Positions 14,934 through 51,502 are shown, counted from the first letter of the stretch. The stretch: 51,502 nt of DNA from Escherichia coli (GCF_003334255.1 NZ_QOWU01000037.1); one strand, 5' to 3'. Program-made: numbers and translations. Notes: generated by a model from the letters alone, not told the origin.

Positions 14934-14935
14934 AC

Positions 14936-15136: not shown

Positions 15137-15185
15137 GATTCTTCACCCGTCAGAACAGGGGGCGCGGTTCCGCGCCCCTGAGTGA

Positions 15186-16391: not shown

Positions 16392-16405
16392 CGTATTTCT
16401 CCTGA

Positions 16406-18457: not shown

Positions 18458-18468
18458 AATTACCTCAG

Positions 18469-20702: not shown

Positions 20703-20743
20703 TCCTGGTTAAATTTCATTTTTCGCGGGTATAAAAAAACGAT

Positions 20744-20792
20744 GGGGCGGGCAGTCCGGAAGACGTCAGGTCACAGAGATTTGACCCGCCCC
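20744..20792. other. Candidate cos/packaging-recognition region (GC inverted repeat between HNH and terS)
   Basis: ggggcggg (20744-20751) and cccgcccc (20785-20792) lie in the only intergenic gap of the HNH-TerS-TerL module. Confidence 0.3.
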
Positions 20793-20818
20793 TCCCCTCA
20801 GACAGTTGAGAATTATTA

Positions 20819-21169: not shown

Positions 21170-21289
21170 ATGTACTCCAATGAAGAAGCCACCGACATAG
21201 CCTCCTCCATTCATCGTGAAACTATTTTCATCTACGCAGTCATGAATTCTTTGTAGAGTTGTGATCAATACAACTCACTAATGGAGAGG

Positions 21290-21326
21290 CTTGTCCAACA
21301 CGTTGGACAAGTTTCCTGTTTGATTT
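21290..21326 (+). terminator. Rho-independent terminator-like hairpin with no obvious upstream + strand gene
   Basis: Perfect 9-bp stem cttgtccaa/ttggacaag with a 4-nt loop, followed by tttcctgtttgattt. Confidence 0.45.
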
Positions 21327-21391
21327 ACTGGACACTATAGAAGGACAGAATGCCTTCCTCACTCGAATAACATTAATTAAGGAGGTTCAAC

Positions 21392-21514
21392 ATGTTTCAT
21401 TCCACAAATCATCAGGCTGTAATTATGGCTGTATCAGTTTGTGCCACAGACCTTTTCCGCTTCACTTTGAGCCTGATTCATTTCTACCTGACCGGCTCGC
21501 CTCTATCTTTTTAA
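21392..21514 (+). CDS. Hypothetical 40-aa hydrophobic peptide with a strong Shine-Dalgarno; not in the ORF track
   Basis: AAGGAGG lies 6 nt upstream of the ATG. Translation: MFHSTNHQAVIMAVSVCATDLFRFTLSLIHFYLTGSPLSF. Confidence 0.3.
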   Translation: MFHSTNHQAVIMAVSVCATDLFRFTLSLIHFYLTGSPLSF

Positions 21515-21694
21515 TCCCCGCTTTATCCAAATTGCATTGCCAGAATGCCGACAACAGACTGACATTCAAATCCTGACTACCTCCAATAGTCTGACCGTAC
21601 ACCTATATAGTTTTAAATTTCATCAATCCATTTAACTATCGTTTAATTGTTGTCACATAGGATTCTGCCGTTTTTAACAATGCAGGATAATAAG

Positions 21695-21988
21695 ATGAAA
21701 AAAATGTTGTTTTCTGCCGCTCTGGCAATGCTTATTACAGGATGTGCTCAACAGACGTTTACTGTTGGAAACAAACCGACAGCAGTAACGCCAAAGGAAA
21801 CCATCACCCATCATTTCTTCGTTTCGGGAATTGGACAGGAGAAAACTGTTGATGCAGCCAAAATTTGTGGCGGCGCAGAAAATGTTGTTAAAACAGAAAC
21901 CCAGCAAACATTCGTAAATGGATTGCTCGGTTTTATTACTTTAGGCATTTATACTCCGCTGGAAGCGCGTGTGTATTGCTCACAATAA
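21695..21988 (+). CDS. bor: Bor lipoprotein (serum-resistance moron)
   Basis: MKKMLFSAALAMLITGCAQQTFTVGNKPTAV... includes the lipobox LITGC and is near-identical to lambda/DLP12 Bor as recalled. Confidence 0.9.
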   Translation: MKKMLFSAALAMLITGCAQQTFTVGNKPTAVTPKETITHHFFVSGIGQEKTVDAAKICGGAENVVKTETQQTFVNGLLGFITLGIYTPLEARVYCSQ

Positions 21989-22019
21989 TTGCATGAGTTG
22001 CCCATCGATATGGGCAGCT

Positions 22020-22481
22020 CTATCTGCACTGCTCATTAATATACTTCTGGGTTCCTTCCAGTTGTTTTTGCATAGTGATCAGCCTCTCTCTGAGGGTGAA
22101 ATAATCCTGTTCAGCGGTGTCTGCCAGTCGGGGGGAGGCTGCATTATCCACGCCGGAGGCGGTGGTGGCTTCACGCACTGACTGACAGACTGCTTTGATG
22201 TGCAACCGACGACGACCAGCGGCAACATCATCACGCAGAGCATCATTTTCAGCTTTCGCATCAGCTAACTCCTTCGTGTATTTTGCATCGAGCGCAGCAA
22301 CATCACGCTGACGCATCTGCATGTCAGTAATTGCCGCGTTCGCCAGCTTCAGTTCTTTGGCATTTTTGTCGCGCTGGGCTTTATAGGTAATGGCGTTATC
22401 ACGGTAATGATTAACAGCCCATGACAGGCAGACGATGATGCAGATAACCAGAGCGGAGATAATCGCGGTTACTCTGTTCAT
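22020..22481 (-). CDS. Rz: Spanin inner-membrane subunit Rz
   Basis: [39 protein letters not shown]... is RzpD-like. Confidence 0.9.
22079..22261 (-). CDS. Rz1: Spanin outer-membrane lipoprotein Rz1 (embedded in Rz, +1 frame)
   Basis: [23 protein letters not shown]... has a lipobox and a Pro-rich mature part. Confidence 0.85.
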
Positions 22482-22975
22482 TGCTGACCCCACAAACAGA
22501 TTTCACGCTCAATCTCACGACGAGTCATGAGACCTTTCCATTGCTTACCGCCAGCATATGTCCAGCGACGTAACTGATCACATGCGCCTTTGATATCGCC
22601 CTGGTTTATTTTGCGAAGAAGCGTCGATGTTCTGAAATTGCCAGCACCCACGTTGTAAACGAATGAGTAAAGAGCGCCGCGCGTTGTTTCCGGTATATCG
22701 ACTTCGATGTATGGGTTAATTTGTCTGGCGACAGTGGCAAGGTCTTTATTCAAGAGTGCTTTGCATTCTGCTTTGGTATACGTTTTACCGAGCATGATGT
22801 CTTTTCCTGTATGCCCGTGACATACGGTCCATACACCAACAATATCTTTGTATGGTATGTAGCTGACACCTTCCAGACCATCGTTACCACTTGGGCCAGT
22901 GATTAACACTGATGCTATAGCAATTGCTCCGCCACCAATAGCAGCAGCAACGGCTTTTCGTAATGATGGAGGCAT
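22478..22975 (-). CDS. SAR endolysin (phage-21 R / RrrD-type lysozyme)
   Basis: An N-terminal signal-arrest-release helix ([18 protein letters not shown]) is followed by a T4-lysozyme-like core. Confidence 0.9.
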
Positions 22976-23190
22976 TATTCACCTCTCGCAGCCTTGCGCT
23001 TATCTTCTTTAATCTTGAAATAAAGGTTTGTCAGGTACGTCAGCAGGCCAAATACCAGGCTACCCAGCACACCTATTGCTGCCCACTGTGAGGGCGTGAC
23101 TTTATCGAGCAGCTGTAAAAACCAGTAACCGGCACTACCTGCTGAGGTGCCATAGGCGACACCCGTTGTTAACTTATCCATGGATTTCAT
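22975..23190 (-). CDS. Pinholin (phage-21 S / EssD-type) with dual-start motif
   Basis: [30 protein letters not shown]... has Met1 and Met4 dual starts and two TMDs. Confidence 0.9.
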
Positions 23191-23778
23191 AACCCCACCT
23201 CGCAGACAAAGCGGGTGTAAATTGAGGGAATACAACGTATCGCAAAAAAGCAGAAACGTAACAGACTCGGAGTCAGTGAATAACTCAGGTATTGAGTTAT
23301 CAGCTAATATCGAGACTCAAAAAATGGAAAAACCAGCTCGACGGCGGGTTTAAGCTGTGTGACGAAGTAACCACTCTTAACAGCATAACCAATTTTTTAC
23401 GTACGTAAACCACTGAATGATATTTATGAGAATGCTACCGAGTGTTCAAAACACCACCACAAATACATAAGAAAACCTCAACAAATAACCAATAAATAAT
23501 TTCCGGCGTTATTTTTAGTTAATTTAAATTAAACCATCGAATTATAGACCCCCCATAAATAACAGCCATTAATATAAATTAGCTAATAGGTTTATTTTTG
23601 TTCAAATAAGAGCCATAAATAGGTTTCGATAGAAAAAGTTCAGATAAAAATAGAGATCTACTTCACAAATTAAATGAGAAACTAAAACTTACATCTTGAA
23701 ATAATCACATTGATTAGATGAATATTTATCGCGCAGTGACATCATTTTTTAATAATAGTTCAAAAAAAAGGGCTCACG

Positions 23779-24861
23779 ATGAAAAAATTAACAGTGGCAA
23801 TTTCTGCTGTAGCTGCATCAGTACTGATGGCGATGTCTGCTCAGGCAGCTGAAATTTATAATAAAGACAGTAACAAGCTGGATCTGTACGGGAAAGTTAA
23901 TGCTAAGCACTACTTCTCCTCTAATGATGCAGATGATGGTGATACTACTTATGCCCGTCTTGGCTTCAAAGGTGAAACCCAAATCAACGATCAACTGACT
24001 GGTTTCGGTCAGTGGGAATATGAATTCAAAGGCAACCGCGCTGAATCTCAAGGTTCCTCCAAAGATAAAACCCGTCTTGCCTTCGCTGGCCTGAAATTCG
24101 GTGACTACGGCTCCATCGATTACGGCCGTAACTACGGTGTAGCATACGACATCGGTGCGTGGACTGACGTCCTGCCAGAATTCGGTGGTGACACTTGGAC
24201 TCAAACAGATGTGTTCATGACTGGTCGCACCACTGGTGTTGCAACTTATCGTAACAACGACTTCTTTGGTCTGGTTGATGGTCTGAACTTTGCTGCTCAG
24301 TATCAGGGTAAAAATGACCGCACTGACGTAACTGAAGCTAATGGTGATGGTTTCGGTTTCTCCACTACTTATGAGTATGAAGGATTCGGTGTAGGTGCAA
24401 CCTATGCTAAATCTGATCGCACTAATAATCAGGTTATCTACGGTAACAACGGTCTGAATGCTTCTGGTCAAAATGCTGAAGTATGGGCAGCTGGTCTGAA
24501 ATATGATGCGAACAACATCTATCTGGCCACCACCTATTCTGAAACCCAGAACATGACTGTTTTTGGTAATAACCATATTGCCAACAAAGCACAAAACTTC
24601 GAAGCTGTTGCACAATATCAGTTCGACTTCGGCCTGCGTCCATCCGTTGCTTACCTGCATTCTAAAGGAAAAGACTTGGGTGTTTGGGGTGATCAGGACC
24701 TGGTTGAATATGTTGATGTAGGTGCAACCTATTACTTCAACAAAAATATGTCCACTTTTGTTGACTACAAAATCAACCTGATTGATAAGAGCGATTTCAC
24801 GAAAGCATCTGGCGTTGCTACCGATGATATCGTTGCTGTAGGTATGGTTTACCAGTTCTAA
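23779..24861 (+). CDS. nmpC: Phage-borne general porin (NmpC/Lc family moron)
   Basis: Signal peptide followed by [17 protein letters not shown]... and a C-terminal VGMVYQF. It is a paralogue of PhoE at 41335-42390. Confidence 0.9.
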
Positions 24862-37112: not shown

Positions 37113-37434
37113 GGCCTGTCAGTTTCTCAAGATATCCAGACCTACCGCTACCAACTGGATACGAACAGGCCGCCTACAGGCAACACGCAAAGACCCCACT
37201 AAACCAAAATCTCCTTACCTCACAACGCGACAAGCCTGCATTGCGGCGCTTCAGTCTCCGCTGCATACTATCAAGGTGAGCGCGGGTGATGGCATAACAG
37301 AGGAAAGAAAATGTCACTCTTCCGCAGAGGTGAAATATGGTACGCCAGTTTCACATTGCCGAACGGTAAAAGATTTAAACAGTCTCTTGGAACAAAGGAC
37401 AAAAGGCAGGCGACAGAACTCCATGACAAGCTAA
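37084..37434 (+). CDS. xis: Excisionase, P22 type
   Basis: [45 protein letters not shown]..., 116 aa. It overlaps the int start by 124 nt, as in P22-type modules. Confidence 0.8.
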
Positions 37435-38474
37435 AGGCTGAAGCATGGCGGGTCAGCAAACTTGGTGAAATACCTGATATAACGTTCGAGGAAGCGTGTG
37501 TCAGGTGGCTTGAAGAGAAAGCACATAAAAAATCACTGGACGATGACAAAAGCCGGATCGGATTCTGGCTTCAACATTTCGCAGGAATGCAACTAAGAGA
37601 CATTACTGAATCAAAAATTTATTCAGCAATGCAGAAAATGACGAACCGGCGTCATGAGGAAAACTGGAAACTCAGGGCAGAAGCATGCAGAAAAAAAGGG
37701 AAACCTGTTCCAGAATACACGCCAAAACCAGCGTCCGTTGCAACGAAGGCTACGCATCTTTCATTTATAAAGGCCCTACTAAGAGCCGCAGAGCGTGAAT
37801 GGAAAATGCTGGATAAGGCACCAATTATTAAAGTGCCTCAACCAAAGAATAAACGGATCCGCTGGCTGGAGCCCCATGAAGCACAAAGGCTGATTGATGA
37901 ATGTCCGGAGCCATTAAAGTCTGTTGTTGAATTTGCACTGGCAACAGGCTTAAGACGCTCGAACATCATCAACCTTGAATGGCAACAAATAGATATGCAG
38001 CGCCGGGTGGCATGGATAAACCCGGAAGAGAGTAAATCAAACCGCGCAATCGGCGTTGCGCTGAATGATACTGCATGTCGCGTTTTGAAAAAACAAATCG
38101 GGAATCATCACCGTTGGGTATTTGTGTACAAGGAAAGCTGTACCAAACCAGACGGAACGAAAGCGCCAACAGTAAGGAAGATGCGGTATGACGCAAACAC
38201 AGCCTGGAAAGCAGCGCTGAGGCGGGCTGGTATTGATGATTTCAGATTTCACGACTTGAGACACACCTGGGCAAGTTGGCTGGTTCAAGCCGGAGTCCCG
38301 TTGTCAGTGTTACAGGAAATGGGAGGCTGGGAGTCTATCGAAATGGTTCGTCGATATGCTCACCTTGCACCTAATCACCTTACCGAACACGCACGGCAAA
38401 TAGACTCGATCCTGAACCCATCGGTCCCAAATTCGTCCCAGTCAAAAAATAAGGAAGGTACTAATGATGTGTAA
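37311..38474 (+). CDS. int: Tyrosine integrase, P22/SfV type (thrW-specific)
   Basis: 387 aa beginning [38 protein letters not shown]..., with catalytic R..HDLRHTW..Y motifs. The stop is 14 nt from the tRNA 3' end. Confidence 0.95.
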
Positions 38475-38488
38475 CTTATTGATTTAAA

Positions 38489-38564
38489 TGGTGCCGATAA
38501 TAGGAGTCGAACCTACGACCTTCGCATTACGAATGCGCTGCTCTACCAACTGAGCTATATCGGC
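38489..38564 (-). tRNA. thrW: tRNA-Thr (anticodon CGT)
   Basis: The reverse complement, GCCGATATAGCTCAGTTGGTAGAGCAGCGCATTCGTAATGCGAAGGTCGTAGGTTCGACTCCTATTATCGGCACCA, folds as a cloverleaf with a TTCGTAA anticodon loop and a CCA end. Confidence 0.95.
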
Positions 38565-38678
38565 CCTGAAAGGACATGTTCACGAACGTGAATCACGGTG
38601 GACAAGGTTAAAACTAACCGGGCGATGCGTCAATGGCCTTGTGAATCAAATGGCTACTTTTGCATCACCCGGTTTTAT

Positions 38679-39932
38679 TTACGCACGAATGGTGTAATCA
38701 CCAATGCCGATCCACTTGTAAGTGGTCAGTGCTTCCAGCCCCATTGGGCCACGCGCGTGGAGTTTTTGTGTGCTTACCGCCACTTCCGCACCCAGACCAA
38801 ACTGGCCGCCGTCGGTAAAACGCGTAGAGGCGTTAACGTAAACAGCGGACGAATCCACTTCGTTAACAAAACGCTGGGCGTTGCGCATATCGCGGGTCAG
38901 GATCGCATCGGAGTGTTGTGTGCCGTGTTCACGAATATGGGCGATGGCATCGTCAAGATCGCTGACGATTTTGACGTTCAAATCTAATGACAGAAACTCA
39001 TCGTCATACTCTTCGGCTTTAACAGCAACCACCTTCGCAGGGCCTGCCTGCAACTGCGCCAGTGCAGCTGCATCTGCGTGTAATGTCACGCCGCTTTCCG
39101 CCATTTGTTTGCTTAATGCGGGCAGGAAGCTATCGGCGATGTTTTTATTCACCAGCAACGTTTCAACCGTATTACATGTGCTCGGACGCTGAGTTTTCGC
39201 GTTGACGATCACTTTTAATGCTTCAGCGATCTCTACACTTTCATCAACGTAAATATGGCATACGCCTATACCACCTGTGATCACCGGGATTGTCGACTGT
39301 TCACGGCACAGTTTATGCAAACCAGCGCCACCACGCGGGATCAGCATGTCGATGTATTTATCCATACGCAGCATTTCACTGACCAGCGCACGGTCAGGAT
39401 TATCAATCGCCTGCACGGCACCCGCCGGTAAGCCGCAGGATTTCAGGGCGTCCTGAATCACCGCCACCGTTGCAGCGTTAGTGCGACACGTTTCTTTGCC
39501 ACCGCGCAGGATCACCGCATTACCGGTTTTCAGGCACAGCGAAGCGACATCAACCGTCACGTTCGGGCGCGCTTCATAAATCACGCCAATAACCCCCAGC
39601 GGTACGCGACGACGCTCAAGACGCAGGCCGCTGTCCAGTACGCCGCCATCGATTACCTGCCCCACCGGATCGGCGAGGTTGCACACCTGACGTACATCGT
39701 CGGCAATGCCTTTCAGCCGTGCGGGCGTCAGTGCCAGACGGTCAAGCATCGCTTCGCTAAGGCCATTGGCTCGCGCGTCAGCAACATCCTGGGCGTTAGC
39801 GTTGAGGATGATTTCGCTTTGTGCTTCCAGTTCATCGGCGATTTTTTCCAGCACGCGATTTTTTTCGCGGCTGGAGAGTTGCGCTAATTTATACGAGGCT
39901 TGCTTCGCGGCAATGCCCATTTGTTCCAGCAT
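38679..39932 (-). CDS. proA: Gamma-glutamyl phosphate reductase
   Basis: 417 aa beginning [38 protein letters not shown]. Confidence 0.97.
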
Positions 39933-39943
39933 CAGCCTGCTCC

Positions 39944-41047
39944 TTAACGGGTAATCATGTCATCACGGTGAACGGCAACCGGGCCGTATTCATATCCCAG
40001 TATTGCATCAATTTCTTGCGAGTGGTGTCCGGCAATACGGCGTAATGCATCGCTGTTGTAACGACTGACGCCGTGGGCGATATCGCGGCCTTCGAGGTTG
40101 CAAATGCGGATGACTTCACCACGCGAGAAATTGCCAGTCACGCTTTTAATGCCTTTCGGCAACAGGGAGCTGCCGCGTTCCAGAATGGCGGCAGTTGCCC
40201 CTTCATCTACCGTGATTTCACCCGCCGGCGGCGCACCGAAAATCCAGCGTTTACGGTTTTCAAGCGGAGTCGCCTGGGCATGGAACAGCGTACCGACGGA
40301 AATGCCTTCCATCACATCACCAATAACGCCCGGCTTGCTGCCCGCGGCAATAATGGTGTCGATACCCGCACGGCAAGCCACGTCAGCGGCCTGCAATTTG
40401 GTACTCATGCCGCCAGTTCCGAGGCCTGAAACGCTGTCACCGGCAATCGCGCGCAGTGCGTCATCAATGCCGTAAACATCTTTAATCAGTTCTGCCTGCG
40501 GATTGCTGCGCGGGTCAGCGGTATACAAACCTTTTTGATCGGTCAGCAGCAACAGTTTATCGGCACCCGCAAGAATCGCCGCCAGCGCAGAAAGGTTATC
40601 GTTATCGCCGACCTTAATCTCTGCCGTAGCGACAGCATCGTTCTCATTGATTACCGGAACGATATTGTTATCGAGCAACGCTCGCAGGGTGTCGCGGGCG
40701 TTCAGGAAGCGTTCACGGTCTTCCATATCAGCACGGGTCAGCAGCATTTGCCCGACGTGAATGCCATAAATCGAAAACAGCTGTTCCCACAGTTGAATCA
40801 GTCGACTCTGCCCTACCGCCGCCAGCAGTTGTTTCGAGGCGATGGTCGCTGGCAGTTCCGGGTAACCCAGGTGCTCACGTCCGGCGGCGATCGCGCCCGA
40901 CGTCACAATAACAATCCGATGCCCGGCGGCATGTAACTGCGCGCACTGGCGAACAAGTTCAACGATATGGGCACGGTTCAGACGGCGCGATCCGCCTGTT
41001 AGCACACTGGTGCCGAGTTTTACCACCAGCGTCTGGCTGTCACTCAT
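39944..41047 (-). CDS. proB: Glutamate 5-kinase
   Basis: 367 aa from [19 protein letters not shown]. The ORF-track N-terminal extension is rejected. Confidence 0.97.
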
Positions 41048-41235
41048 GATTCTCTGCCATTCAATTTTAGGAAAAATGATATCAAACGAACGTTTTAGCA
41101 GGACTGTCGTCGGTTGCCAACCATCTGCGAGCAAAGCATGGCGTTTTGTTGCGCGGGATCAGCAAGCCTAGCGGCAGTTGTTTACGCTTTTATTACAGAT
41201 TTAATAAATTACCACATTTTAAGAATATTATTAAT

Positions 41236-41253
41236 CTGTAATATATCTTTAAC
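41236..41253 (+). promoter_or_regulatory. Pho box in the phoE promoter
   Basis: ctgtaatatatctttaac resembles the CTGTCAT-A(A/T)A(A/T)-CTGT(C/A)A(C/T) PhoB site and lies about 80 bp upstream of phoE. Confidence 0.5.
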
Positions 41254-41334
41254 AATCTCAGGTTAAAAACTTTCCTGTTTTCAACGGGACTCTCCCGCTG
41301 AATATTCGCGCGTTAATTAAAATCAGGAATGAAA

Positions 41335-42390
41335 ATGAAAAAGAGCACTCTGGCATTAGTGGTGATGGGCATTGTGGCATCTGCATCTGTACAGGCTGCA
41401 GAAATATATAATAAAGACGGTAATAAACTGGATGTCTATGGCAAAGTTAAAGCCATGCATTATATGAGTGATAACGCCAGTAAAGATGGCGACCAGAGTT
41501 ATATCCGTTTTGGTTTTAAAGGCGAAACACAAATTAACGATCAACTGACTGGTTATGGTCGTTGGGAAGCAGAGTTTGCCGGTAATAAAGCAGAGAGTGA
41601 TACTGCACAGCAAAAAACGCGTCTCGCTTTTGCCGGGTTGAAATATAAAGATTTGGGTTCTTTCGATTATGGTCGTAACCTGGGGGCGTTGTATGACGTG
41701 GAAGCCTGGACCGATATGTTCCCGGAATTTGGTGGCGATTCCTCGGCGCAGACCGACAACTTTATGACCAAACGCGCCAGCGGTCTGGCGACGTATCGGA
41801 ACACCGACTTCTTCGGCGTTATCGATGGCCTGAACTTAACCCTGCAATATCAAGGGAAAAACGAAAACCGCGACGTTAAAAAGCAAAACGGCGATGGCTT
41901 CGGCACGTCATTGACATATGACTTTGGCGGCAGCGATTTCGCCATTAGTGGGGCCTATACCAACTCAGATCGCACCAACGAGCAGAACCTGCAAAGCCGT
42001 GGCACAGGCAAGCGTGCAGAAGCATGGGCAACAGGTCTGAAATACGATGCCAATAATATTTATCTGGCAACTTTCTATTCTGAAACACGCAAAATGACGC
42101 CAATAACTGGCGGCTTTGCCAATAAGACACAGAACTTTGAAGCGGTCGCTCAATACCAGTTTGACTTTGGTCTGCGTCCATCGCTGGGTTATGTCTTATC
42201 GAAAGGGAAAGATATTGAAGGTATCGGTGATGAAGATCTGGTCAATTATATCGACGTCGGTGCTACGTATTATTTCAACAAAAATATGTCAGCGTTTGTT
42301 GATTATAAAATCAACCAACTGGATAGCGATAACAAATTGAATATTAATAATGATGATATTGTCGCGGTTGGCATGACGTATCAGTTTTAA
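41335..42390 (+). CDS. phoE: Phosphoporin PhoE
   Basis: [38 protein letters not shown]..., 351 aa. Confidence 0.95.
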
Positions 42391-42398
42391 TGAATATT

Positions 42399-42419
42399 GC
42401 CGGATGTGATGCATCCGGC
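42399..42419. terminator. Hairpin between convergent phoE and crl
   Basis: gccggatg-tgatg-catccggc. Confidence 0.45.
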
Positions 42420-42428
42420 ACATTTCAC

Positions 42429-42887
<459 letters not shown>

Positions 42888-44132
42888 TTAACACAAGCGT
42901 TTTTCGATCCAGTCGGTGATTTCCTGAAGACCTTTGTCAAAATTCCGATACACCGGGTTAAATGGGATCTCTAATAATTTACCGTCAGCAGATGATGAGG
43001 TGATTAAGCGTGAGTCCTCTTCCGGGCTGAACGGATCGTTCTTCCAGTAGCCTGATAACATTGGCGTTGGGCAGCGACGTCCCAGCAATCCTTGCACTTT
43101 TAATGAATAGCGATTCAGCTCCACGCGCAACGCTTCATCGGAAGCATCATGCATCCCCAAACGACTGGCCAGAACGTCAAGATACATTTCCGGCACCTGT
43201 TGCTGGCACTTAAAATCACTCAACAGGGTATGAACTACCGGACCAAGACAGGCAACCGCTTTCAGACGCGGCGATTCAAGGTATGCCAGACGCACGGCAA
43301 CGTTAGCGCCGAAACGGAAACCAAAGGCCGCGACGCGAGTGTGATCCACCCACGGTACGTTAGGCAGCGCCTTTAAGACGTGCTGATGCAACAGGCTGGA
43401 GTCCTGGGTGAGCTTCCATTTTGAAGAAAAGCCCACCGACGGCATATCAATAGTCAGCATCGCAATGCCGCGCGGCGCAAAATAACGTTCATACAGGCTG
43501 TAATAGTCCGTCTGCATCGCATCCAGACCACCACACATTAATACCGTCGGGAACGGGCCATCGCCTTTCGGCATATGCAAAAAGCCGGTGATGGGCGCAC
43601 CGCCGGGTACGGTAAACTCCATCTGCCGCATCGTGCCCGGTAGACGCTGAGCGGCCTCTTCATAGGCGCGGTTTGACAAAGCCTGCGCTTGCTCGGCCAG
43701 GTCATCTCCTTTCAGATGAGGATAGGCGGCAATGTTGTACAACGTAGCCGCATGCAGCCAGTGACGACCACTGAGTTGCGGATCGTCTTCCGCACAGGCT
43801 TTTTGTTGCCACACCATCGCCTGGGTGGCCCACTCATAAATCCAGTTGCCGCCACGGTAGCCAATCACCGTATCGTATAAATCATCGTCGGTACGTTCGG
43901 CATCGCTCATCACAATACGTGCCTGGACGTCGAGGATTTCGCGTGGGTCAATGCCGCGCCAGATCCACATCAGACGGTTAATCATGCGATACCAGTGAGG
44001 GATGGTTTTACCATCAAGGGCCGACTGCACAGGCGGTTGTGCGCCGTGATTAAAGCGGCGGACTAGCGTCGAGGTTTCAGGATGTTTAAAGCGGGGTTTG
44101 AACAGGGTTTCGCTCAGGTTTGCCTGTGTCAT
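42888..44132 (-). CDS. frsA: Fermentation/respiration switch esterase FrsA
   Basis: [43 protein letters not shown]..., 414 aa. Confidence 0.97.
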
Positions 44133-44223
44133 GGATGCAGCCTCCAGAATACTTACTGGAAACTATTGTAACCCGCCTGAAGTTAAAAAGAACAACGCCC
44201 GGCAGTGCCAGGCGTTGAAAAGA

Positions 44224-44682
44224 TTAGCGACCGGAGATTGGCGGGACGAATACGACGCCCATATCCCACGGCTGTTCAATCCAGGTATCTTGCGGGATAT
44301 CAACAACATAGTCATCAACCAGCGGACGACCAGCCGGTTTTGCGAAGATGGTGACAAAGTGCGCTTTTGGATACATTTCACGAATCGCAACCGCAGTACC
44401 ACCGGTATCCACCAGGTCATCAATAACGATGAAGCCTTCGCCATCGCCTTCTGCGCGTTTCAGCACTTTAAGCTCGCGCTGGTTGTCGTGATCGTAGCTG
44501 GAAATACAAACGGTATCGACATGACGAATACCCAGTTCACGCGCCAGTAACGCACCCGGTACCAGACCGCCACGGCTTACGGCAATAATGCCTTTCCATT
44601 GTTCAGAAGGCATCAGTCGGCTTGCGAGTTTACGTGCATGGATCTGCAACATGTCCCAGGTGACGATGTATTTTTCGCTCAT
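44224..44682 (-). CDS. gpt: Xanthine-guanine phosphoribosyltransferase
   Basis: [39 protein letters not shown]..., 152 aa. Confidence 0.97.
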
Positions 44683-44942
44683 GTGAAGTGTCCCAGCCTG
44701 TTTATCTACGGCTTAAAAAGTGTTCGAGGGGAAAATAGGTTGCGCGAGATTATAGAGATCTGGCGCACTAAAAACCAGTATTTCACATGAGTCCGCGTCT
44801 TTTTACGCACTGCCTCTCCCTGACGCGGGATAAAGTGGTATTCTCAAACATATCTCGCAAGCCTGTCTTGTGTTGACAACATTTTCTGCTAACCCTGTGA
44901 CCTGCAATACTGTTTTGCGGGTGATCGACAAGGAGACTTAAC

Positions 44943-46400
44943 GTGTCTGAACTGTCTCAATTATCTCCACAGCCGCTGTGGGATATTTTTGCCAAAATCT
45001 GTTCTATTCCTCACCCGTCCTATCATGAAGAGCAACTCGCTGAATACATTGTTGGTTGGGCAAAAGAGAAAGGTTTCCATGTCGAACGCGATCAGGTAGG
45101 TAATATCCTGATTCGTAAACCTGCTACCGCAGGTATGGAAAATCGTAAACCGGTCGTCTTACAGGCCCACCTCGATATGGTGCCGCAGAAAAATAACGAC
45201 ACCGTGCATGACTTCACGAAAGATCCTATCCAGCCTTATATTGATGGCGAATGGGTTAAAGCGCGCGGCACCACGCTGGGTGCGGATAACGGCATTGGTA
45301 TGGCCTCTGCGCTGGCGGTTCTGGCTGACGAAAACGTGGTTCACGGCCCGCTGGAAGTGCTGCTGACCATGACCGAAGAAGCCGGTATGGACGGTGCGTT
45401 CGGCTTACAGGGCAACTGGTTGCAGGCTGATATTCTGATTAACACCGACTCCGAAGAAGAAGGTGAAATCTACATGGGTTGTGCGGGGGGTATCGACTTC
45501 ACCTCCAACCTGCATTTAGATCGTGAAGCGGTTCCAGCTGGTTTTGAAACCTTCAAGTTAACCTTAAAAGGTCTGAAAGGCGGTCACTCCGGCGGGGAAA
45601 TCCACGTTGGGCTGGGTAATGCCAACAAACTGCTGGTGCGCTTCCTGGCGGGTCATGCGGAAGAACTGGATCTGCGCCTTATCGATTTCAACGGCGGCAC
45701 ACTGCGTAACGCCATCCCGCGTGAAGCCTTTGCGACCATTGCTGTCGCAGCTGATAAAGTCGACGTCCTGAAATCTCTGGTGAATACCTATCAGGAGATC
45801 CTGAAAAACGAGCTGGCAGAAAAAGAGAAAAATCTGGCCTTGTTGCTGGACTCTGTAGCGAACGATAAAGCTGCCCTGATTGCGAAATCTCGCGATACCT
45901 TTATTCGTCTGCTGAACGCCACCCCGAACGGTGTGATTCGTAACTCCGATGTAGCCAAAGGTGTGGTTGAAACCTCCCTGAACGTCGGTGTGGTGACCAT
46001 GACTGACAATAACGTAGAAATTCACTGCCTGATCCGTTCACTGATCGACAGCGGTAAAGACTACGTGGTGAGCATGCTGGATTCGCTGGGTAAACTGGCT
46101 GGCGCGAAAACCGAAGCGAAAGGCGCATATCCTGGCTGGCAGCCGGACGCTAATTCTCCGGTGATGCATCTGGTACGTGAAACCTATCAGCGCCTGTTCA
46201 ACAAGACGCCGAACATCCAGATTATCCACGCGGGCCTGGAATGTGGTCTGTTCAAAAAACCGTATCCGGAAATGGACATGGTTTCTATCGGGCCAACTAT
46301 CACCGGTCCACACTCTCCGGATGAGCAAGTTCACATCGAAAGCGTAGGTCATTACTGGACACTGCTGACTGAACTGCTGAAAGAAATTCCGGCGAAGTAA
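44943..46400 (+). CDS. pepD: Aminoacyl-histidine dipeptidase PepD
   Basis: GTG start. MSELSQLSPQPLWDIFAKICSIPHPSYHEEQLAEYIVGWAKEKG..., 485 aa. Confidence 0.97.
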   Translation: MSELSQLSPQPLWDIFAKICSIPHPSYHEEQLAEYIVGWAKEKGFHVERDQVGNILIRKPATAGMENRKPVVLQAHLDMVPQKNNDTVHDFTKDPIQPYIDGEWVKARGTTLGADNGIGMASALAVLADENVVHGPLEVLLTMTEEAGMDGAFGLQGNWLQADILINTDSEEEGEIYMGCAGGIDFTSNLHLDREAVPAGFETFKLTLKGLKGGHSGGEIHVGLGNANKLLVRFLAGHAEELDLRLIDFNGGTLRNAIPREAFATIAVAADKVDVLKSLVNTYQEILKNELAEKEKNLALLLDSVANDKAALIAKSRDTFIRLLNATPNGVIRNSDVAKGVVETSLNVGVVTMTDNNVEIHCLIRSLIDSGKDYVVSMLDSLGKLAGAKTEAKGAYPGWQPDANSPVMHLVRETYQRLFNKTPNIQIIHAGLECGLFKKPYPEMDMVSIGPTITGPHSPDEQVHIESVGHYWTLLTELLKEIPAK

Positions 46401-46412
46401 TTATTTGATTTG

Positions 46413-46444
46413 CTGCCGGATGGCGTTTAATCGCCTTCCGGCAG
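46413..46444. terminator. REP-like hairpin / terminator between pepD and prfH
   Basis: ctgccggatggcg-tttaat-cgccttccggcag forms a 12-bp stem with one mismatch, followed by ttt. Confidence 0.55.
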
Positions 46445-46456
46445 TTTCATCCTTCA

Positions 46457-46981
46457 TTATCCTTCGATAAAAGCCATCCCTGTAAATGTCCGTCGCGGGT
46501 TGCCACGTTCAATCTGGTGATGGAACATTCGCCGCTGCGATTTCAGCGCCGCGCTATTTTCCTGTTGCTGTTGCTCCAGCTTCCAGGCAATCAGCAATCG
46601 TGCCAGCCGCTTGTTAGCATGCTGACTACGCTCTGACTGAACCTTCACGCTAATACCGGATGCCAAATGCGTGGCGCGTACCGCCGAGTCGGTTTTATTG
46701 ACATGTTGACCGCCCGGCCCCGACGAACGCAGCGTCTCATAACGGATTGCATCCGATTGTTCCTGCTCATCAGCGGTAAAACGCCCAATGCCCAGAAACC
46801 AGTTTTTGCGCCCATGATGAGGCCGATACGGACTCGGACAAATCCACTGAATAGTGCCACACCAGCTTTCGCTTAATGCCCATGCGTTATCGCCATCGAG
46901 AGAAACCAGCGCCGAACGCAGTGTGTCAGAGTAGCGGCCCGTTTCTGTTTCCAGCACCGTTACCGCGACGTCTTGCCGGGT
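46457..46981 (-). pseudogene. prfH: prfH (RF-H peptide chain release factor homologue), 5'-truncated
   Basis: Homology begins at ..[19 protein letters not shown] and runs to the normal C-terminus, including [13 protein letters not shown]. The N-terminal roughly 35 aa of full-length PrfH are missing. Confidence 0.8.
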
Positions 46982-46994
46982 AAAAACGACCAAC

Positions 46995-47180
46995 AGAGAA
47001 GAACGCTGCGCCAATCGGGTAGCCGCGTCCGGGGTGTAAATCTGGCATCCCCACTACGCGCTGCATGTTGGGTAAATTTGCCGTGGTGTGTAATTGTTGG
47101 ATCGCTAAACTCTCGATCCACAGGTCATCAGATGCGATGGTAAATACCGCATCGGATAAGGGACGAATATATTTGCCCAT
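46995..47180 (-). pseudogene. ykfJ: RtcB-family RNA ligase N-terminal fragment (ykfJ-type remnant)
   Basis: [62 protein letters not shown], after which the frame runs out of homology into prfH sequence. Confidence 0.75.
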
Positions 47181-47193
47181 GTACCATTCCATT

Positions 47194-47320
47194 TATACTC
47201 GTCATACTTCAAGTTGCATGTACTGCGACTGCGTTCGTTCACCCCAGTCACTTACTTATGTAAGCTCCTGGCGATTCACTCGCTTGTCGCCTTCCTGCAA
47301 CTCGAATTATTTAGAGTATA
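47194..47320. repeat. ERIC (IRU) element, full-length 127 bp
   Basis: Contains both classic ERIC primer regions: caccccagtcacttactt (reverse complement of ERIC2) and atgtaagctcctggcgattcac (ERIC1R with one mismatch). The ends tatactc...gagtata are palindromic. Confidence 0.85.
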
Positions 47321-47497
47321 TAAATATAAAAATCAGGAAATGGCAGACGAATCCAGGGCAAGAAAAAAAGAATTAATCCTGGAAAGGTCTGCAAAGAGTC
47401 ATTGATAAAGGATTTGTCATGATTTACCTCCTTGCAGTTTGTGGAATCAGAAAACGCGCACATACCAGGCGGGCGTTATTTTCATTGCAAGCTGGAT

Positions 47498-47950
47498 TTA
47501 ATGTTGCGGTTTATATCGCATATAAAAATTAGTAAACCACGCTCCCCGGCATTCAACGCGCTGCTGCTTAACTGTCTGAAAACCATAACGTTCAAAAAAG
47601 GGTTTTGCGGTTATGCTTGCGTCCACCGTAAGTTCGGATTCAGACTTAATCAAAGGTTTTAACAAAGCGCTGGCAACCCCACGGCGGGTGTATTCAGGGT
47701 CAACAAATAACATATCGATATAATGTTCAATGCGGGAAATAAAACCAACCGGTTGTGCATTAATGATCGCAACCCACACTTGTGATTTCGCGAGTTTCTC
47801 CTTCCAGCGAGATTCGTCAATCTGCGCCCAGGCGGAAATTTGTTGTGGTGAATAATGCTGACTGGCGGTCATCGTAACCGCTCTAATGAAAATAGCGCAT
47901 AGTTGCTGAAAATCGCCAGGCTGATAGTTTCTTATTTGTATGTTATTCAT
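47498..47950 (-). CDS. yafP: GNAT acetyltransferase YafP
   Basis: MNNIQIRNYQPGDFQQLCAIFIRAV..., 150 aa, the last gene of the dinB operon. Confidence 0.9.
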   Translation of the reverse strand: MNNIQIRNYQPGDFQQLCAIFIRAVTMTASQHYSPQQISAWAQIDESRWKEKLAKSQVWVAIINAQPVGFISRIEHYIDMLFVDPEYTRRGVASALLKPLIKSESELTVDASITAKPFFERYGFQTVKQQRVECRGAWFTNFYMRYKPQH

Positions 47951-47959
47951 AATATAAAT

Positions 47960-48358
47960 TCAAAAACGCATGCGAAACGCTTCTGCCATTTTCCCAATTT
48001 TATGCATTTGGTTGTTATCTCGAGCCAGTTTATGAGGTTCAGGTTTCAGAATGGCAATGAGCAACCATGCTTGCTCATCAAACGCCCCCTGACAATATAC
48101 CAAATGCGCTTCGTCATTCGTTCTGCTGAATTGGCGCAACTGTGGCGGAAATGGATTATTCTCATTTGCCAGATGAATATGAGCAACTCGCTCAAATTTG
48201 ATTAATGGCCAGGTAAAGGAGTCGTCGTAGAGTGCATCGCGACCAAATATATCTGGCAAAACACCGTCACGCTTATAGGAAATAAAATCCGCCGTTAACG
48301 CATCAAGTTCCTCTGCTGTAAGTTGCAGGCGAATAAGTTTTGTTTTGAATACCCGCAT
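47960..48358 (-). CDS. yafO: YafO ribosome-dependent mRNA interferase toxin
   Basis: MRVFKTKLIRLQLTAEELDALTADFISYKRDG..., 132 aa. Confidence 0.9.
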   Translation of the reverse strand: MRVFKTKLIRLQLTAEELDALTADFISYKRDGVLPDIFGRDALYDDSFTWPLIKFERVAHIHLANENNPFPPQLRQFSRTNDEAHLVYCQGAFDEQAWLLIAILKPEPHKLARDNNQMHKIGKMAEAFRMRF

Positions 48359-48360
48359 CC

Positions 48361-48654
48361 TTATTCCTTAAAGTCATTGAAATCATCATCCGTCATATCA
48401 TTAAGATATTGTTCAGCGCGGCGTGTAATTTCCTCTAATCTTGCAGCACTTGGACGGAAGCGCGCCTTTATGGGCTTTTTCTCCTCTTGTTCAGCAAGCA
48501 TGTCCATTAACGCTTCGAATGCGCTGGCACTTAAGAGATATCCTGCGGGGCGATTATTAGAAAGAACCGCAACCGGTTGATCAATAAAGTATTTAGCTGG
48601 GTTTTTACGTAACTCAGTGATATTGACCGATTTTTCAGCGAGAATTCGATGCAT
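48361..48654 (-). CDS. yafN: YafN antitoxin (Phd/YefM family)
   Basis: MHRILAEKSVNITELRKNPAKYFIDQPVAVLSNNRPAGYLLS..., 97 aa. Confidence 0.9.
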   Translation of the reverse strand: MHRILAEKSVNITELRKNPAKYFIDQPVAVLSNNRPAGYLLSASAFEALMDMLAEQEEKKPIKARFRPSAARLEEITRRAEQYLNDMTDDDFNDFKE

Positions 48655-48705
48655 ACAGTGATACCCTCATAATAATGCACACCAGAATATACATAATAGT
48701 ATACA

Positions 48706-49758
48706 TCATAATCCCAGCACCAGTTGTCTTTCCATTTGCGGGTCAAGCAACGTCACATGCAGCCCCACCAGACGCACACCGCGCCCGCCGCGGCGTTCAT
48801 CCCAGGTTTTACGCGCGGTGGCGATTAGATCAGCTTTATTCAGCCGCGGCCAGACGTGCTCCTGGGTGGTTTGCTGAAAATCGTCGAACTTTAATTTCAC
48901 CCCCTGGCGAGCAATCAGTAAATCAGGTTTTACCTTTGCCAGACGGCGTTCAAGTTCCGGATACAGCCGCTCGATAATCGCTTCACATTCAGACCAGTGA
49001 TGAATATCTTCCGCCATCGTGCGTTCCACGCCGACGGATTTTCGCAACCGTTCGCTGTTAACATCGCGTTCGTCAATCCCCTGACTACGCTCCCACAAAA
49101 TGCGGCCAAATTTGCCAAAGCGTTTAAGCAGCATCACCAGATCACACTTTTGTACATCACCGCAGGTCCGCAGCCCCATCGCTTCCAGTTTTGCCGCTGA
49201 GACTTTGCCGACGCCGGGGATTTTTGCCAGCGGTAAGGTTTGTAAAAATGCCGGAACTTCTGCCGGCGTAATCACAAACTGGCCGTTGGGTTTATTCATG
49301 TCGGAGGCGATTTTGGCGAGAAACTTTACTGGTGCCACGCCCGCAGACGCCGTCAGTTGCAGCTCGTTGAAGATTGTCTGGCGGATTTCCTGGGCGATGA
49401 GGGTCGCAGAACCGTGGCAATGGACGCTATCGGTGACATCGAGATAAGCCTCATCCAGTGACAACGGTTCAATGCGCGAGGTGTAGCGCGAGAAGATTTC
49501 ACGGATATGATTTGAGGCTTCTTTGTAGGCGTCAAAGCGCCCCGGAAGCAAGGTGAGATGTGGGCATAATTTGAGCGCCATCCCTGTCGGCATAGCGCTA
49601 CGTACGCCAAATTTACGCGCGGGATAATTGGCGGTGCTGATCACCCCCCGACGTTCGCGGCTGCCGCCAATAGCAATAGGGATATCGCGCAGGGCGGGAT
49701 TGTCGCGCATCTCCACTGCGGCGAAAAAGCAGTCCATATCCACATGAATAATCTTCAC
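48706..49758 (-). CDS. dinB: DNA polymerase IV (start uncertain: GTG 49758 or GTG 49770, no ATG)
   Basis: ..[31 protein letters not shown]... through ...[14 protein letters not shown] matches K-12 DinB as recalled, except for the first 2-3 codons. Confidence 0.93.
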
Positions 49759-49771
49759 TTTCTTATGCACC

Positions 49772-49787
49772 CTGTGGATTTATACAT
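49772..49787. promoter_or_regulatory. Candidate LexA (SOS) box upstream of dinB
   Basis: CTGTggatttatACAT matches 7 of the 8 conserved positions of CTGT-N8-ACAG. It ends 2 nt upstream of GTG 49770 and 14 nt upstream of GTG 49758. Confidence 0.4.
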
Positions 49788-49816
49788 ATAAAGAGATTAT
49801 ACACACAAAAGCAAAA

Positions 49817-50587
49817 TCAGTAAGTGCCGCGTTTATTCGGATTCACGCTAAACTTCCGTAAAGCATTACCCGACTTAAGCACCTTTGAAGCTTGCTCATT
49901 AGCTGAGGCTGTGAAGGTGCTTTTTCCATTCTCAACTTTGACACTTTTACCACAATTGATACGGGCTTGAAGTTGCTCATTAGTGAGTTCACTCGTAGAG
50001 CGATTATATAACTCCTGACACAGCAACATACCATTACCTAAACTTGTTGTAGTGTTACCTGTATTCTTCTTAGAAGTTGCACCACCATCATTCGTGGTAG
50101 CTGTTTTGCCAGTAGCTGCTGAGACATCAGTTTGTCCTACGATTGAACGAAACTCTACACCTTGGAAGGTCATCTGAATACGAAGACCGTTAGCAATGGT
50201 ATGCTCTTTACTCGCTTTAAACTGAGTAATGATACTATCAGTGATAGCTATTCCATCTCTACAAACAATAGTGATGATTTGCTTCTGGTCTCGCCATTGT
50301 TCAACCGTAGAAATAAAGGTTTCTACAAGTTGCCCCTGTCTGGTTAATAGAACTGAACCCGTCGAATCAACCACTACAACACCGCTAATAGAGATGGTCT
50401 TAGGTGCTCTCTGAACATTATCAGTGATAGTTTGCCCCGATTGCATAGCCTGAGTTGTCACCATCATCGGTGAGTCATAGTCCATCTGTTCAGTAGCTGT
50501 TAAGGCAAGAAAAGATTCTACATTATCTCTAAGGTGAAAATAGATACCATCTTTACCTGAGTATCTAATTTGCTTTGTGTCAAACAT
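49817..50587 (-). CDS. Low-GC orphan protein; N-terminal domain resembles phage tail-hub / DNA-circulation-N-like folds, then a Thr/Asn/Gly linker and a small C-terminal domain
   Basis: 256 aa. The pattern ..[25 protein letters not shown].. parallels the ..HEYPNRDKPYTEDLGKITFRPSITAYVVGD.. logic of the Mu gpN-like protein at 7437-8813. The similarity is weak and judged by eye only. Confidence 0.5.
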
Positions 50588-50684
50588 TGTTGTTATTCCT
50601 ATTCTGTTAAGCGTGAGCTACGTGAAATCTTGAACCGCCCCGGAAATCCTGGAGACTAAACTCCCTGAGAAAGAGGTAAACAGG

Positions 50685-51011
50685 ATGACTAAAAATACTC
50701 GTTTTTCCCCCGAAGTCCGTCAGCGGGCGATTCGTATGGTTCTGGAAAGTCAGGATGAATATGACTCACAGTGGGCGGCAATTTGTTCCATTGCCCCAAA
50801 GATTGGCTGTACGCCGGAGACTCTGCGTGTCTGGGTTCGCCAGCATGAGCGGGATACCGGGGGCGGTGATGGAGGGCTCACCACCGCTGAACGTCAGCGT
50901 CTGAAAGAGCTGGAACGTGAAAATCGTGAACTGCGCCGCAGTAACGATATCCTTCGCCAGGCTTCCGCTTATTTTGCGAAGGCGGAGTTCGACCGCCTCT
51001 GGAAAAAATGA
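50685..51011 (+). CDS. IS629 OrfA (HTH transposase subunit)
   Basis: [105 protein letters not shown]. Confidence 0.9.
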
Positions 51012-51425
51012 TGCCACTGCTGGATAAGCTGCGTGAGCAGTACGGGGTCGGACCGGTATGCAGCGAACTGCATATTGCCCCGTCAACGTATTACCATTGT
51101 CAGCAACAGCGACATCATCCGGATAAACGCAGTGCCCGTGCGCAGCACGATGACTGGCTGAAGAGAGAGATACAGCGCGTATACGATGAAAATCATCAGG
51201 TGTACGGTGTGCGTAAAGTCTGGCGTCAGTTGTTACGGGAAGGAATCAGGGTGGCCAGATGTACAGTGGCGCGCCTCATGGCGGTTATGGGACTTGCCGG
51301 TGTTCTCCGGGGTAAAAAGGTCCGCACTACCGTCAGCCGGAAAACCGTTGCCACAGGTGACCGCGTAAACCGTCAGTTCGTGGCAGAACGTCCTGACCAG
51401 CTGTGGGTGGCTGATTTTACTTACG
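51008..51425 (+). pseudogene. IS629 OrfB (DDE transposase), truncated before the catalytic core
   Basis: [46 protein letters not shown]... The native continuation VSTWQGF is replaced by unrelated sequence from 51426. Confidence 0.8.
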
Positions 51426-51502
51426 GTGTGCCCGGAGTTCAGGGCGGGCATGGATGCTTAAATGAACCGCGAGTCTGTCTGGAATATTGAACCGGTAACT
51501 CA

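Follow-up and report, generated by a model that had tools for sequence, protein, structure and literature searches.

The window analysed here is a stretch of Escherichia coli DNA taken at its full length of 51,502 nucleotides (GCF_003334255.1, NZ_QOWU01000037.1). Towards its upper end lies dinB, the gene of DNA polymerase IV (Pol IV), in a minus-strand open reading frame (ORF) spanning 48706–49770, with yafN, yafO and yafP downstream on the same strand and, on its other side, a phage-type tail gene and an insertion sequence (IS). An earlier note on this DNA had singled out the 5' end of dinB, where the native initiation region appeared to have been replaced. We examine this 5' end together with an ~11.5-kb integrative element, whose junction with dinB it most probably represents. 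The empty chromosomal attachment site of the element is called attB, the site on the element itself attP, and the two junctions of an inserted copy attL and attR. The features of the locus are the following:

47498–48654, minus strand: yafP (47498–47950), yafO (47960–48358) and yafN (48361–48654), from the ORF list, with names from the collinear K-12 and G1/2 annotation.
48706–49758, minus strand: dinB (DNA polymerase IV), rebuilt ORF of 350 amino acids from GTG 49758 (MKIIHVD...), from the ORF list and the identity to K-12 DinB.
49724–49774, minus strand: putative attR, ~25 bp on each side of the core, with a host half (B', 49724–49747) inside dinB and an element half (P arm, 49750–49774), from the comparison of arms.
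49748–49749, no strand: palindromic central dinucleotide AT of the crossover, common to attB, attP, attL and attR, from the comparison of junctions and the end of identity with G1/2.
49770–49789, plus strand: LexA-box-like motif CCCTGTGGATTTATACATAT, containing CTGT-N8-ACAT, probably not a functional operator in this allele, from an approximate heterology index (HI).
49796–49824, minus strand: promoter-like signal and candidate substitute dinB promoter (-35 CTTACT 49824–49819, 17-bp spacer, -10 TATAAT 49801–49796), predicted from a relaxed scan.
49817–50587, minus strand: Dit-like tail protein of 256 amino acids, last gene of the element, named 'phage baseplate protein' by the Prokaryotic Genome Annotation Pipeline (PGAP); Pfam Dit_like PF21821, E=1.2e-17; PHROG 3721, E=3e-127.
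50588–50630, minus strand: element sequence between the start of the Dit-like gene and the IS, from the comparison with scaffold L014.
50631–51502, plus strand: IS3-family insertion sequence (IS1203/IS629-like), with a transposase gene that points away from dinB; annotated IS3-family copies match it at 99.8% over 872 bp.

On the minus strand, the stop of ORF 49817–50587 (TAC TGA) is followed by TTTTGCTTTTGTGTGTATAATCTCTTTATATGTATAAATCCACAGG and then by the in-frame codons GTG(49770) CAT AAG AAA GTG(49758) AAG ATT ATT CAT GTG GAT ATG GAC, with an in-frame TAA at 49782–49780 just 5' of GTG 49770. The 5' region of dinB in K-12 reads CACTGTATACTTTACCAGTGTTGAGAGGTGAGCAATGCGTAAAATCATTCATGTGGAT, where CACTGTATACTTTACCAGTGTTGAGAGGTGAGCA runs into ATG CGT AAA ATC ATT CAT GTG GAT. 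The native ATG, the GAGG Shine–Dalgarno (SD) sequence and the LexA box are thus gone from the dinB gene of the window, in which GTG 49758 and GTG 49770 are the only possible starts, and neither of the native promoter/operator sequences, CACTGTATACTTTACCAGTG and ATGCGTAAAATCAT, has a copy anywhere in the 51.5 kb. The earlier note had read the codons, their coordinates, the GTG starts, and the missing ATG and SD correctly, and the K-12 start that it quoted agrees with the K-12 sequence. It had likewise described the protein as reference-like from KIIHVD onwards. Indeed, identity with K-12 DinB is 349/349 from K3 to the C-terminus, and the polymerase sequence is complete, including the N-terminal catalytic Asp (D8, K-12 numbering), the segment of which lies downstream of the junction described below; IMS-family Pfam domains are recorded for the 350-amino-acid product in the identical sequence of scaffold L014. 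This 350-amino-acid form is the one chosen by PGAP (GB089, NC101) and by the gene caller of the assemblies collection; the PGAP call in other genomes falls back on M9, and the alternative start at GTG 49770 gives a protein of 354 amino acids. The 58 bp upstream (49759–49816), already noted as AT-rich, have a G+C content of 29%, against 41% for ORF 49817–50587, 54% for dinB and 51% for the whole window. This ORF, previously taken for a low-GC orphan, does have a low G+C content, but it is the gene of the Dit-like tail protein and no orphan.

To locate the break, positions 49600–50000 were compared by megablast with 5426 complete E. coli genomes. The dinB part of the query was matched in 5417 of them, nearly always with an upper limit at 49749 for perfect matches or 49755 for those with mismatches, and query coverage was at least 80% in four genomes only and 79% in four more. 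The near-isogenic strain G1/2 is 99.992% identical to window positions 37145–49749 (1 mismatch in 12,605 bp); its identity ends exactly at 49749, and from 49750 on it has the native dinB start, SD, LexA box and lafU. The similarity to the reference therefore does not break at the start codon, as had been proposed, but at the AT of 49748–49749, between codons 4 and 5 and 12–14 nt inside the ORF, and the AAG ATT (K, I) above this breakpoint is foreign sequence that mimics the native AAA ATC. From 49750 upward, the window corresponds to the right end of an ~11.5-kb insertion found between lafU and dinB in GB089, APEC O18 and several assemblies, and present in more than 10 genomes and assemblies. 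The same junction recurs base for base in independent genomes and assemblies, and hence does not result from chance.

Both ends of the insertion point to a site-specific exchange. Empty attB (K-12, G1/2) reads ..GCA ATG CGT AAA ATC-AT-T CAT GTG GAT.., attL (GB089, APEC O18, SCU-484) reads ..ATG CGT AAA ATC-AT-GATTTTCACTTCCTAAAACACCC.., and attR (the window, GB089, L014 and others) reads ..GGGTGCATAAGAAAGTGAAGATT-AT-TCATGTGGAT... With their arms reduced to the bases next to the core, the three are ..CGTAAAATC-AT-TCATGTGG.. (attB), ..CGTAAAATC-AT-GATTTTCAC.. (attL) and ..GTGAAGATT-AT-TCATGTGG.. (attR). The bases flanking AT differ between them (C/T at -1, T/G at +1), so that the exchange must lie within AT; there is neither a longer common core nor a target duplication. 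The unoccupied attB of G1/2 and, likewise, of most E. coli genomes is identical up to the crossover. When attP is reconstructed from attL and attR, it forms a pseudo-palindrome of ~50 bp centred on AT: the P arm on the minus strand, GGGTGCATAAGAAAGTGAAGATT, matches the reverse complement of the P' arm, GGGTGTTTTAGGAAGTGAAAATC (GB089/NC101), at 17 of the 25 core-nearest positions. The attB arms match at only 8/25, and attB is much less symmetric. By analogy with the A118 integrase (PMC3783163, PMC3556126), we infer that attR extends over ~25 bp per half-site. The reciprocal junction, attL, which was looked for in the window and is absent from it, lies ~11.5 kb away in genomes of the same orientation, where it keeps the dinB promoter (PdinB), LexA box, SD and ATG CGT AAA ATC directly upstream of a recombinase gene. 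Thus promoter, LexA box, SD, ATG and codon 2, which make up the native initiation region, have indeed been replaced in front of dinB, as the earlier note had it, but the native 5' end survives in such genomes at the far end of the element.

The element begins with this recombinase, of 514 amino acids, followed by a 227-amino-acid coiled-coil protein, a 181-amino-acid protein of the resolvase/invertase family (Pfam, PHROG) encoded on the other strand, a ~313-amino-acid helix-turn-helix (HTH) protein resembling HTH_36 proteins and replication initiators (PHROG E=1e-10), variable small ORFs (Dam, HNH), a 688-amino-acid tape-measure protein and the 256-amino-acid protein of the window ORF. The 514-amino-acid protein is a large serine recombinase, with the domains Resolvase (PF00239, 4–163), Recombinase (PF07508, 193–276) and Zn_ribbon_recom (PF13408, 295–355), all above gathering scores, and it matches the integrases of PHROG 95 (E=3e-73). 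In its N-terminus, MRKVYSYIRFSSTKQ, the segment YIRFSSTKQ fits by inspection the catalytic serine motif of the family, Y-x-R-x-S-S/T-x-x-Q.

We put at roughly 90% the probability that the anomalous 5' end of dinB is the attR junction of an ~11.5-kb phage-derived integrative element, inserted between codons 4 and 5 by this large serine recombinase, which cuts dinB off from its SOS promoter and provides a substitute GTG start. According to this scenario, the recombinase would recombine attP with the chromosomal ..ATG CGT AAA ATC-AT-T CAT GTG.. in dinB. In the orientation of the window, dinB-yafNOP would then be uncoupled from its own SOS promoter, dinB would be transcribed from the weak element-end promoter CTTACT-17-TATAAT or by read-through, and DinB would be translated from GTG 49758 with a ribosome-binding site weaker than the native one. 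The IS3-family insertion, which points away from dinB, would be a further obstacle to read-through from the long same-strand operon upstream in the element. At the other end, PdinB with its LexA box and SD would drive a short ORF and then read into the recombinase gene. Pol IV levels are therefore probably lower here, with little or no LexA control, which is a prediction and would extend to yafNOP if, as we assume with the earlier note, these genes are co-transcribed with dinB. The suggestion that expression and SOS control of dinB-yafNOP may differ from K-12 is thus still a prediction, now backed by a replaced control region and a rare allele.

What signals remain in front of dinB bears on the most serious alternative, namely that the junction is attR and dinB nevertheless stays under effective SOS control. 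LexA would then bind at CTGT-N8-ACAT (CTGTGGATTTATACAT, 49772–49787, plus strand), which the earlier note had offered as a possible box, just downstream of the TATAAT of the element. The motif is indeed there, and at 49770–49789 it spans about +1 to +20 relative to the candidate TATAAT at 49801–49796. As a LexA box it is weak. With an HI matrix that is approximate, being rebuilt from 30 E. coli LexA boxes, of which only the dinB box was checked against sequence, it scores ~15.6, outside the 2.2–12.5 of all 30 known boxes and against 9.2 for the native dinB box. Its right half is CAT, where T replaces the G of CAG that occurs in 56/60 symmetrised known half-sites, and the combination of CTG and CAG is accordingly missing. 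Eight sites in the window score as well or better, although only 2.5% of shuffles of the arm do so, and the APEC O18 allele (CCCTGTATATTTATACATGC), with an HI of 11.9, comes within the range of weak known boxes. The motif also partly overlaps the recombinase-binding arm, which could explain its conservation. Retained SOS control through this motif thus seems unlikely to us, and strong LexA control of dinB in the window allele is unlikely from its sequence.

CTTACT-17-TATAAT matches the consensus at 9/12 positions in a relaxed scan, the same count as native PdinB (TTCTCA-16-TATACT), and a consensus scan found no terminator on the dinB strand between the tail gene and dinB. Predicted SD pairing amounts to -3.9 kcal/mol for GTG 49758 and -1.9 for GTG 49770, compared with -7.1 for the native ATG. 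Searches for RNA families at 49500–50700 returned none at E<=1. At attL (L001:739–768 in GB089; the same in L004 and L006), the native dinB start opens a 9-codon ORF, ATG CGT AAA ATC ATG ATT TTC ACT TCC TAA (MRKIMIFTS*), which ends about 55–60 nt before the recombinase ATG; this is the short ORF that captured PdinB would drive. The recombinase gene also has a promoter-like signal of its own (TTCACT-15-TATAAT) and a strong LexA-like box, TACTGGATAAATATACAGAT, with an HI of 5.4–6.4 by the same approximate matrix, which overlaps the recombinase start, its last two bases being the AT of the ATG. This box has the consensus TACTGGAT(A/G)AA(T/C)ATACAGAT, is the sole strong box in the 11.5-kb element and is kept in 5/5 loci examined, as follows from sequence matches and HI:

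L001:806–825, LexA-like box at the recombinase ATG.
L003:9693–9712, the same box.
L004:20047–20066, the same box.
L005:20047–20066, the same box.
L006:9047–9066, the same box.

The recombinase is accordingly predicted to be SOS-induced.

The element is rare and site-specific. Its recombinase gene was found in 26 of the 5426 complete genomes, in one place only per genome, and always between lafU and dinB in every copy for which the neighbourhood was read or the dinB junction matched. Two orientations occur. The Dit-like end lies next to dinB (the direct orientation, that of the window) in 8 genomes, and the recombinase end (inverted) in 18. The earlier note had named, as the finding that would refute it, an alignment showing this upstream sequence to be the common allele; the upstream comparison shows the opposite. 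Among the assemblies returned for the exact window protein, 6 of 8 were direct and 2 inverted. Inverted junctions again lie exactly at AT (..ATGCGTAAAATC-AT-AATCTTCACTTTCTTATGCACCC.. and ..GGGTGTTTTAGGAAGTGAAAATC-AT-TCATGTGGAT..). NC101 (inverted) and SCU-484 (direct) carry one and the same derivative, shortened by deletion to 5.5 kb, which differs between them by a single gap and no mismatch over 5558 bp and has flanks that are 99.9% identical, and the recombinase gene of TUM9757 (inverted) is 100% identical to that of GB089 (direct). Such near-identical elements in opposite orientations imply that the recombinase was recently active, as far as sequence comparison can tell.

Insertion by serine integrases is reported to take its orientation from the central dinucleotide and from nothing else (Ghosh 2003; Smith 2004; both as cited in PMC3783163). 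Since this dinucleotide sets polarity and AT is its own reverse complement, both orientations are accounted for here, whether by re-integration or by inversion in situ. By this rule a palindromic dinucleotide should allow either orientation. The reading frame survives both: each arm of the element bears an in-frame GTG AAR ATY immediately before AT, so that the dinB ORF is rebuilt as M-K-I-I-H-V-D..., with the loss of R2 only, in either orientation. The inverted form leaves no choice of start but the counterpart of GTG 49758, owing to a TAG two codons upstream. There, the recombinase box and a TATAAT (TTCATC-18-TATAAT, with the box in the spacer) stand ~60–75 bp upstream of the dinB GTG, and dinB may on these grounds keep SOS control in this orientation.

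The two orientations could instead be produced by a small Hin-like invertase, or by RecA acting on terminal inverted repeats. This is quite improbable. The element does encode the 181-amino-acid protein of the resolvase/invertase family, and its ends are imperfect inverted repeats; but the inverted-form breakpoints are exactly the AT of attL and attR, a Hin-type enzyme would lack two proper sites, as the host halves are unrelated (8/25), 25-bp repeats at 68% identity are too short for RecA, and a palindromic dinucleotide is the very condition under which serine integrases lose polarity. We rejected inversion of either kind on account of the AT breakpoints, the unrelated host halves and the short repeats.

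A still weaker case can be made for an accidental junction, in which dinB lost its 5' end and was joined to the remains of a prophage through a deletion or rearrangement caused by an IS. An IS3-family element is indeed near, 0.9 kb away at 50631–51502, and only a single phage gene is visible in the window next to dinB. Yet the identical junction exists in IS-free L014, GB089, L016 and L018–L021, the missing dinB 5' end is kept at the other end of the element, and the junction sits at the centre of a pseudo-palindrome with a precise 2-bp exchange. The IS-free copies rule out this origin for the dinB junction, and the IS event is separate and later. The IS, with ORFs at 50685–51011 and 51008–51490, has entered the element between its tape-measure gene and its Dit-like gene, at 50630/50631, 43 bp upstream of the tail gene, and is missing at the same position in L014, GB089 and APEC O18. 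Scaffold L014 is 100.000% identical to window positions 39817–50630 (10,814 bp), beyond which its sequence runs on into the tape-measure gene and that of the window into the IS; it carries the complete element, so that the window can be regarded as the L014 lineage plus a later IS event. The arrangement of Dit-like gene and IS was present in none of the complete E. coli genomes searched, and the second transposase ORF (51008–51490) appears to end early relative to IS1203 orfB. Finally, the view that the upstream region of dinB is here simply a variant form, allelic or typical of a phylogroup, with a documented regulation of its own, has practically nothing left in its favour: dinB is variable enough for use as a multilocus sequence typing locus (PMC9782041) and the first codons past the junction still give K-I-I-H-V-D, but of the 5417 genomes that match the dinB part only 8 have this junction and 18 its inverted counterpart, the sequence that diverges belongs to the end of an insertion of 11.5 kb coding for a recombinase, and the variant is ruled out by the K-12-type start of the near-isogenic empty-site strain and by the existence of the reciprocal junction.

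Several observations weigh against insertion by the serine recombinase with loss of SOS control, which we nonetheless prefer. Phage records, GTDB species representatives and IMG/VR yielded neither a free phage nor a circular form in which attP is intact, and no candidate for the recombination directionality factor that would serve excision was identified. The window stops within the IS; any recombinase and attL that this genome has lie beyond it, and the element may be truncated here. A stricter scan gave no sigma-70 promoter on the minus (dinB) strand. Weak LexA binding may still take place at 49770–49789, given that the motif beats 97.5% of shuffles, that the APEC O18 allele scores better and that the HI is approximate. 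The effects on dinB level and SOS control are themselves predicted from these signals.

The recombinase stands rather apart from known enzymes. By tblastn against 50,697 phage records, its best match had 34% identity, to YbcK-like recombinases of lambdoid phages; GTDB species representatives and IMG/VR contained only relatives of 22–31% identity, in Clostridia, identity to Gram-positive phage integrases is ~24%, and a PDB sequence search returned no solved structure at E<=0.001. Its 90%-identity cluster has 334 members and its next relative is 39% identical, a pattern by which the dinB-site recombinase is an isolated lineage. E. coli has many serine recombinases that are 38–39% identical to it; one of their clusters at 90% identity counts 4181 members. 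In E. coli a7 (L022, NZ_CP122496.1), positions 11900–24250 hold a sibling element of ~11 kb between yciI and tonB, with a core of invertase, Dam, HTH/replication-like protein, tape-measure and Dit-like protein, and with a different, 506-amino-acid serine recombinase at the opposite end. From their gene content, the dinB and yciI-tonB elements look like members of a family that swaps integrases and target sites.

As judged from these sequences, the mechanism is of a known kind, that is, integration by a large serine recombinase inside a gene. In the Listeria phages A118 and phi10403S, which integrate in comK, attP forms a pseudo-palindrome ~50 bp long, attB is hardly symmetric and has low identity to attP, and crossover takes place at a central 2 bp (PMC3556126, PMC3783163). 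The dinB element resembles them in that a phage-type element is put inside a host coding sequence by such an enzyme, with a pseudo-palindromic attP and a 2-bp crossover. More generally, its junction hallmarks (2-bp exchange, symmetric attP, less symmetric attB) are those of the A118, phiC31 and Bxb1 integrases (PMC3556126, PMC3783163). But comK is split and inactive until excision, and its GG core is non-palindromic and allows one orientation, whereas the dinB element enters 12–14 nt into the ORF, supplies a new start, leaves the ORF whole and has an AT core. The relationship of its recombinase to the A118 type is no more than distant, with no PDB match and ~24% identity to the integrases of Gram-positive phages. 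In Bacillus subtilis, SPbeta (SprA, in spsM) and skin (SpoIVCA, in sigK) are large serine recombinase elements lying in genes whose expression hinges on the state of the element. These are on/off sporulation switches that depend on excision, while dinB is uncoupled from its promoter and not interrupted in frame. The mutated central dinucleotides of Bxb1 and phiC31 belong to engineered sites; the dinB element looks like a natural case, with a palindromic core and both orientations among close strains.

The predicted LexA box at the recombinase gene recalls the integron integrase gene intI, which Guerin et al. reportedly placed under LexA control in 2009; such a box would make recombination part of the SOS response. 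The enzyme there is a tyrosine recombinase, however, whereas in the dinB element the gene whose ATG overlaps the box (TACTGGATAAATATACAGAT) encodes a serine recombinase, and PdinB is captured in one orientation. From the elements in comK, spsM and sigK, the dinB element differs in the target in the first codons of an SOS gene, the rebuilt ORF, the naturally palindromic core with both orientations, and a recombinase gene that has a predicted LexA box and captures PdinB. A literature search on dinB in connection with serine recombinases, integration sites, prophages and lafU, and on satellites in connection with tape-measure genes and Felixounavirus, returned no earlier description of the element or of the dinB attachment site.

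The virion genes of the element consist of the tape-measure gene and the Dit-like gene that follows it, an adjacent pair as in virulent FelixO1-like myophages. The Dit-like protein is ~70% identical to the product of the gene directly after the tape-measure gene in virulent Ounavirinae/FelixO1-like phages (SUSP1/2, mistaenkt, EcSzw-2, Sf15), and the tape-measure protein is 28% identical to that of SUSP2 and collinear with it from end to end (the pair lies at L014:7761–10771 and, in phage SUSP2, at L023:6740–9777). Pfam and PHROG annotation found no capsid, portal or terminase gene in the ~11.5 kb. A compact size of ~10–18 kb, an integrase with a replication module and the lack of a complete virion gene set are the marks of a satellite, and all are found here. 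The constant ~11.5-kb size, the integrase, the replication initiator and the presence of only two tail genes, both resembling those of virulent phages, thus suggest a satellite-like or interference element aimed at virulent phages, a suggestion that rests on gene content. Defence-system models run on the element proteins gave only weak coiled-coil or HTH noise. The Vibrio cholerae phage-inducible chromosomal island-like element (PLE) is a satellite, ~18 kb in size, whose helper is the virulent myophage ICP1; it encodes a replication initiator and an integrase of the large serine recombinase type. The dinB element is likewise a compact island that encodes proteins of these two kinds, and its two virion proteins resemble those of virulent Ounavirinae; but the gene contents are otherwise unrelated, and the dinB element is known here from its genes, which makes the likeness a lead and not a classification.

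Side observations concern the surroundings. A prophage with terminase, portal, capsid and tyrosine integrase genes occupies window positions 13500–38564, adjoining tRNA-Thr(CGT) (thrW) at 38489–38564, and is 100% identical over 24.9 kb to prophages of the human faecal strains G1/2, G6/7 and G8, in all of which the dinB site is empty. Between yafP and pepD (46980–47330), the ykfJ/prfH arrangement of the window is decayed as in K-12, and rtcB and prfH are reduced to fragments, while rtcB-prfH is intact in GB089, APEC O18 and NC101. In GB089 and several assemblies, yafN-yafO is missing and yafP directly follows dinB. The element is thus found in several versions of a variable neighbourhood, as both the yafP-pepD and the yafN-yafO arrangements differ between carriers.

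The asymmetry of the SOS signals between the two orientations invites a further reading, which we regard as speculative and rather improbable. The element would be a natural, SOS-wired, invertible and excisable Pol IV switch, its orientation setting the damage-inducibility of Pol IV and yafNO, and at the same time a new E. coli satellite parasitising virulent FelixO1-like (Ounavirinae) phages. The palindromic AT would let the serine recombinase flip or re-insert the element; in the direct orientation, dinB would stand behind the end of the tail gene without a good LexA box and PdinB would be given over to the recombinase, whereas in the inverted orientation dinB would come next to the LexA box and TATAAT promoter of the recombinase.

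DinB is the SOS-induced translesion polymerase that underlies much of stress-induced mutagenesis. Carriers of the element, which include the much-used strains NC101, NGF-1 and APEC O18, may differ from K-12 in Pol IV level, damage-induced mutagenesis and yafNO expression, and caution is called for when results on dinB are carried over from K-12 to such strains. For work on mobile elements and genome engineering, the element offers an apparently undescribed serine integrase with precisely definable 50-bp attB and attP sites, a naturally palindromic core and predicted SOS control.

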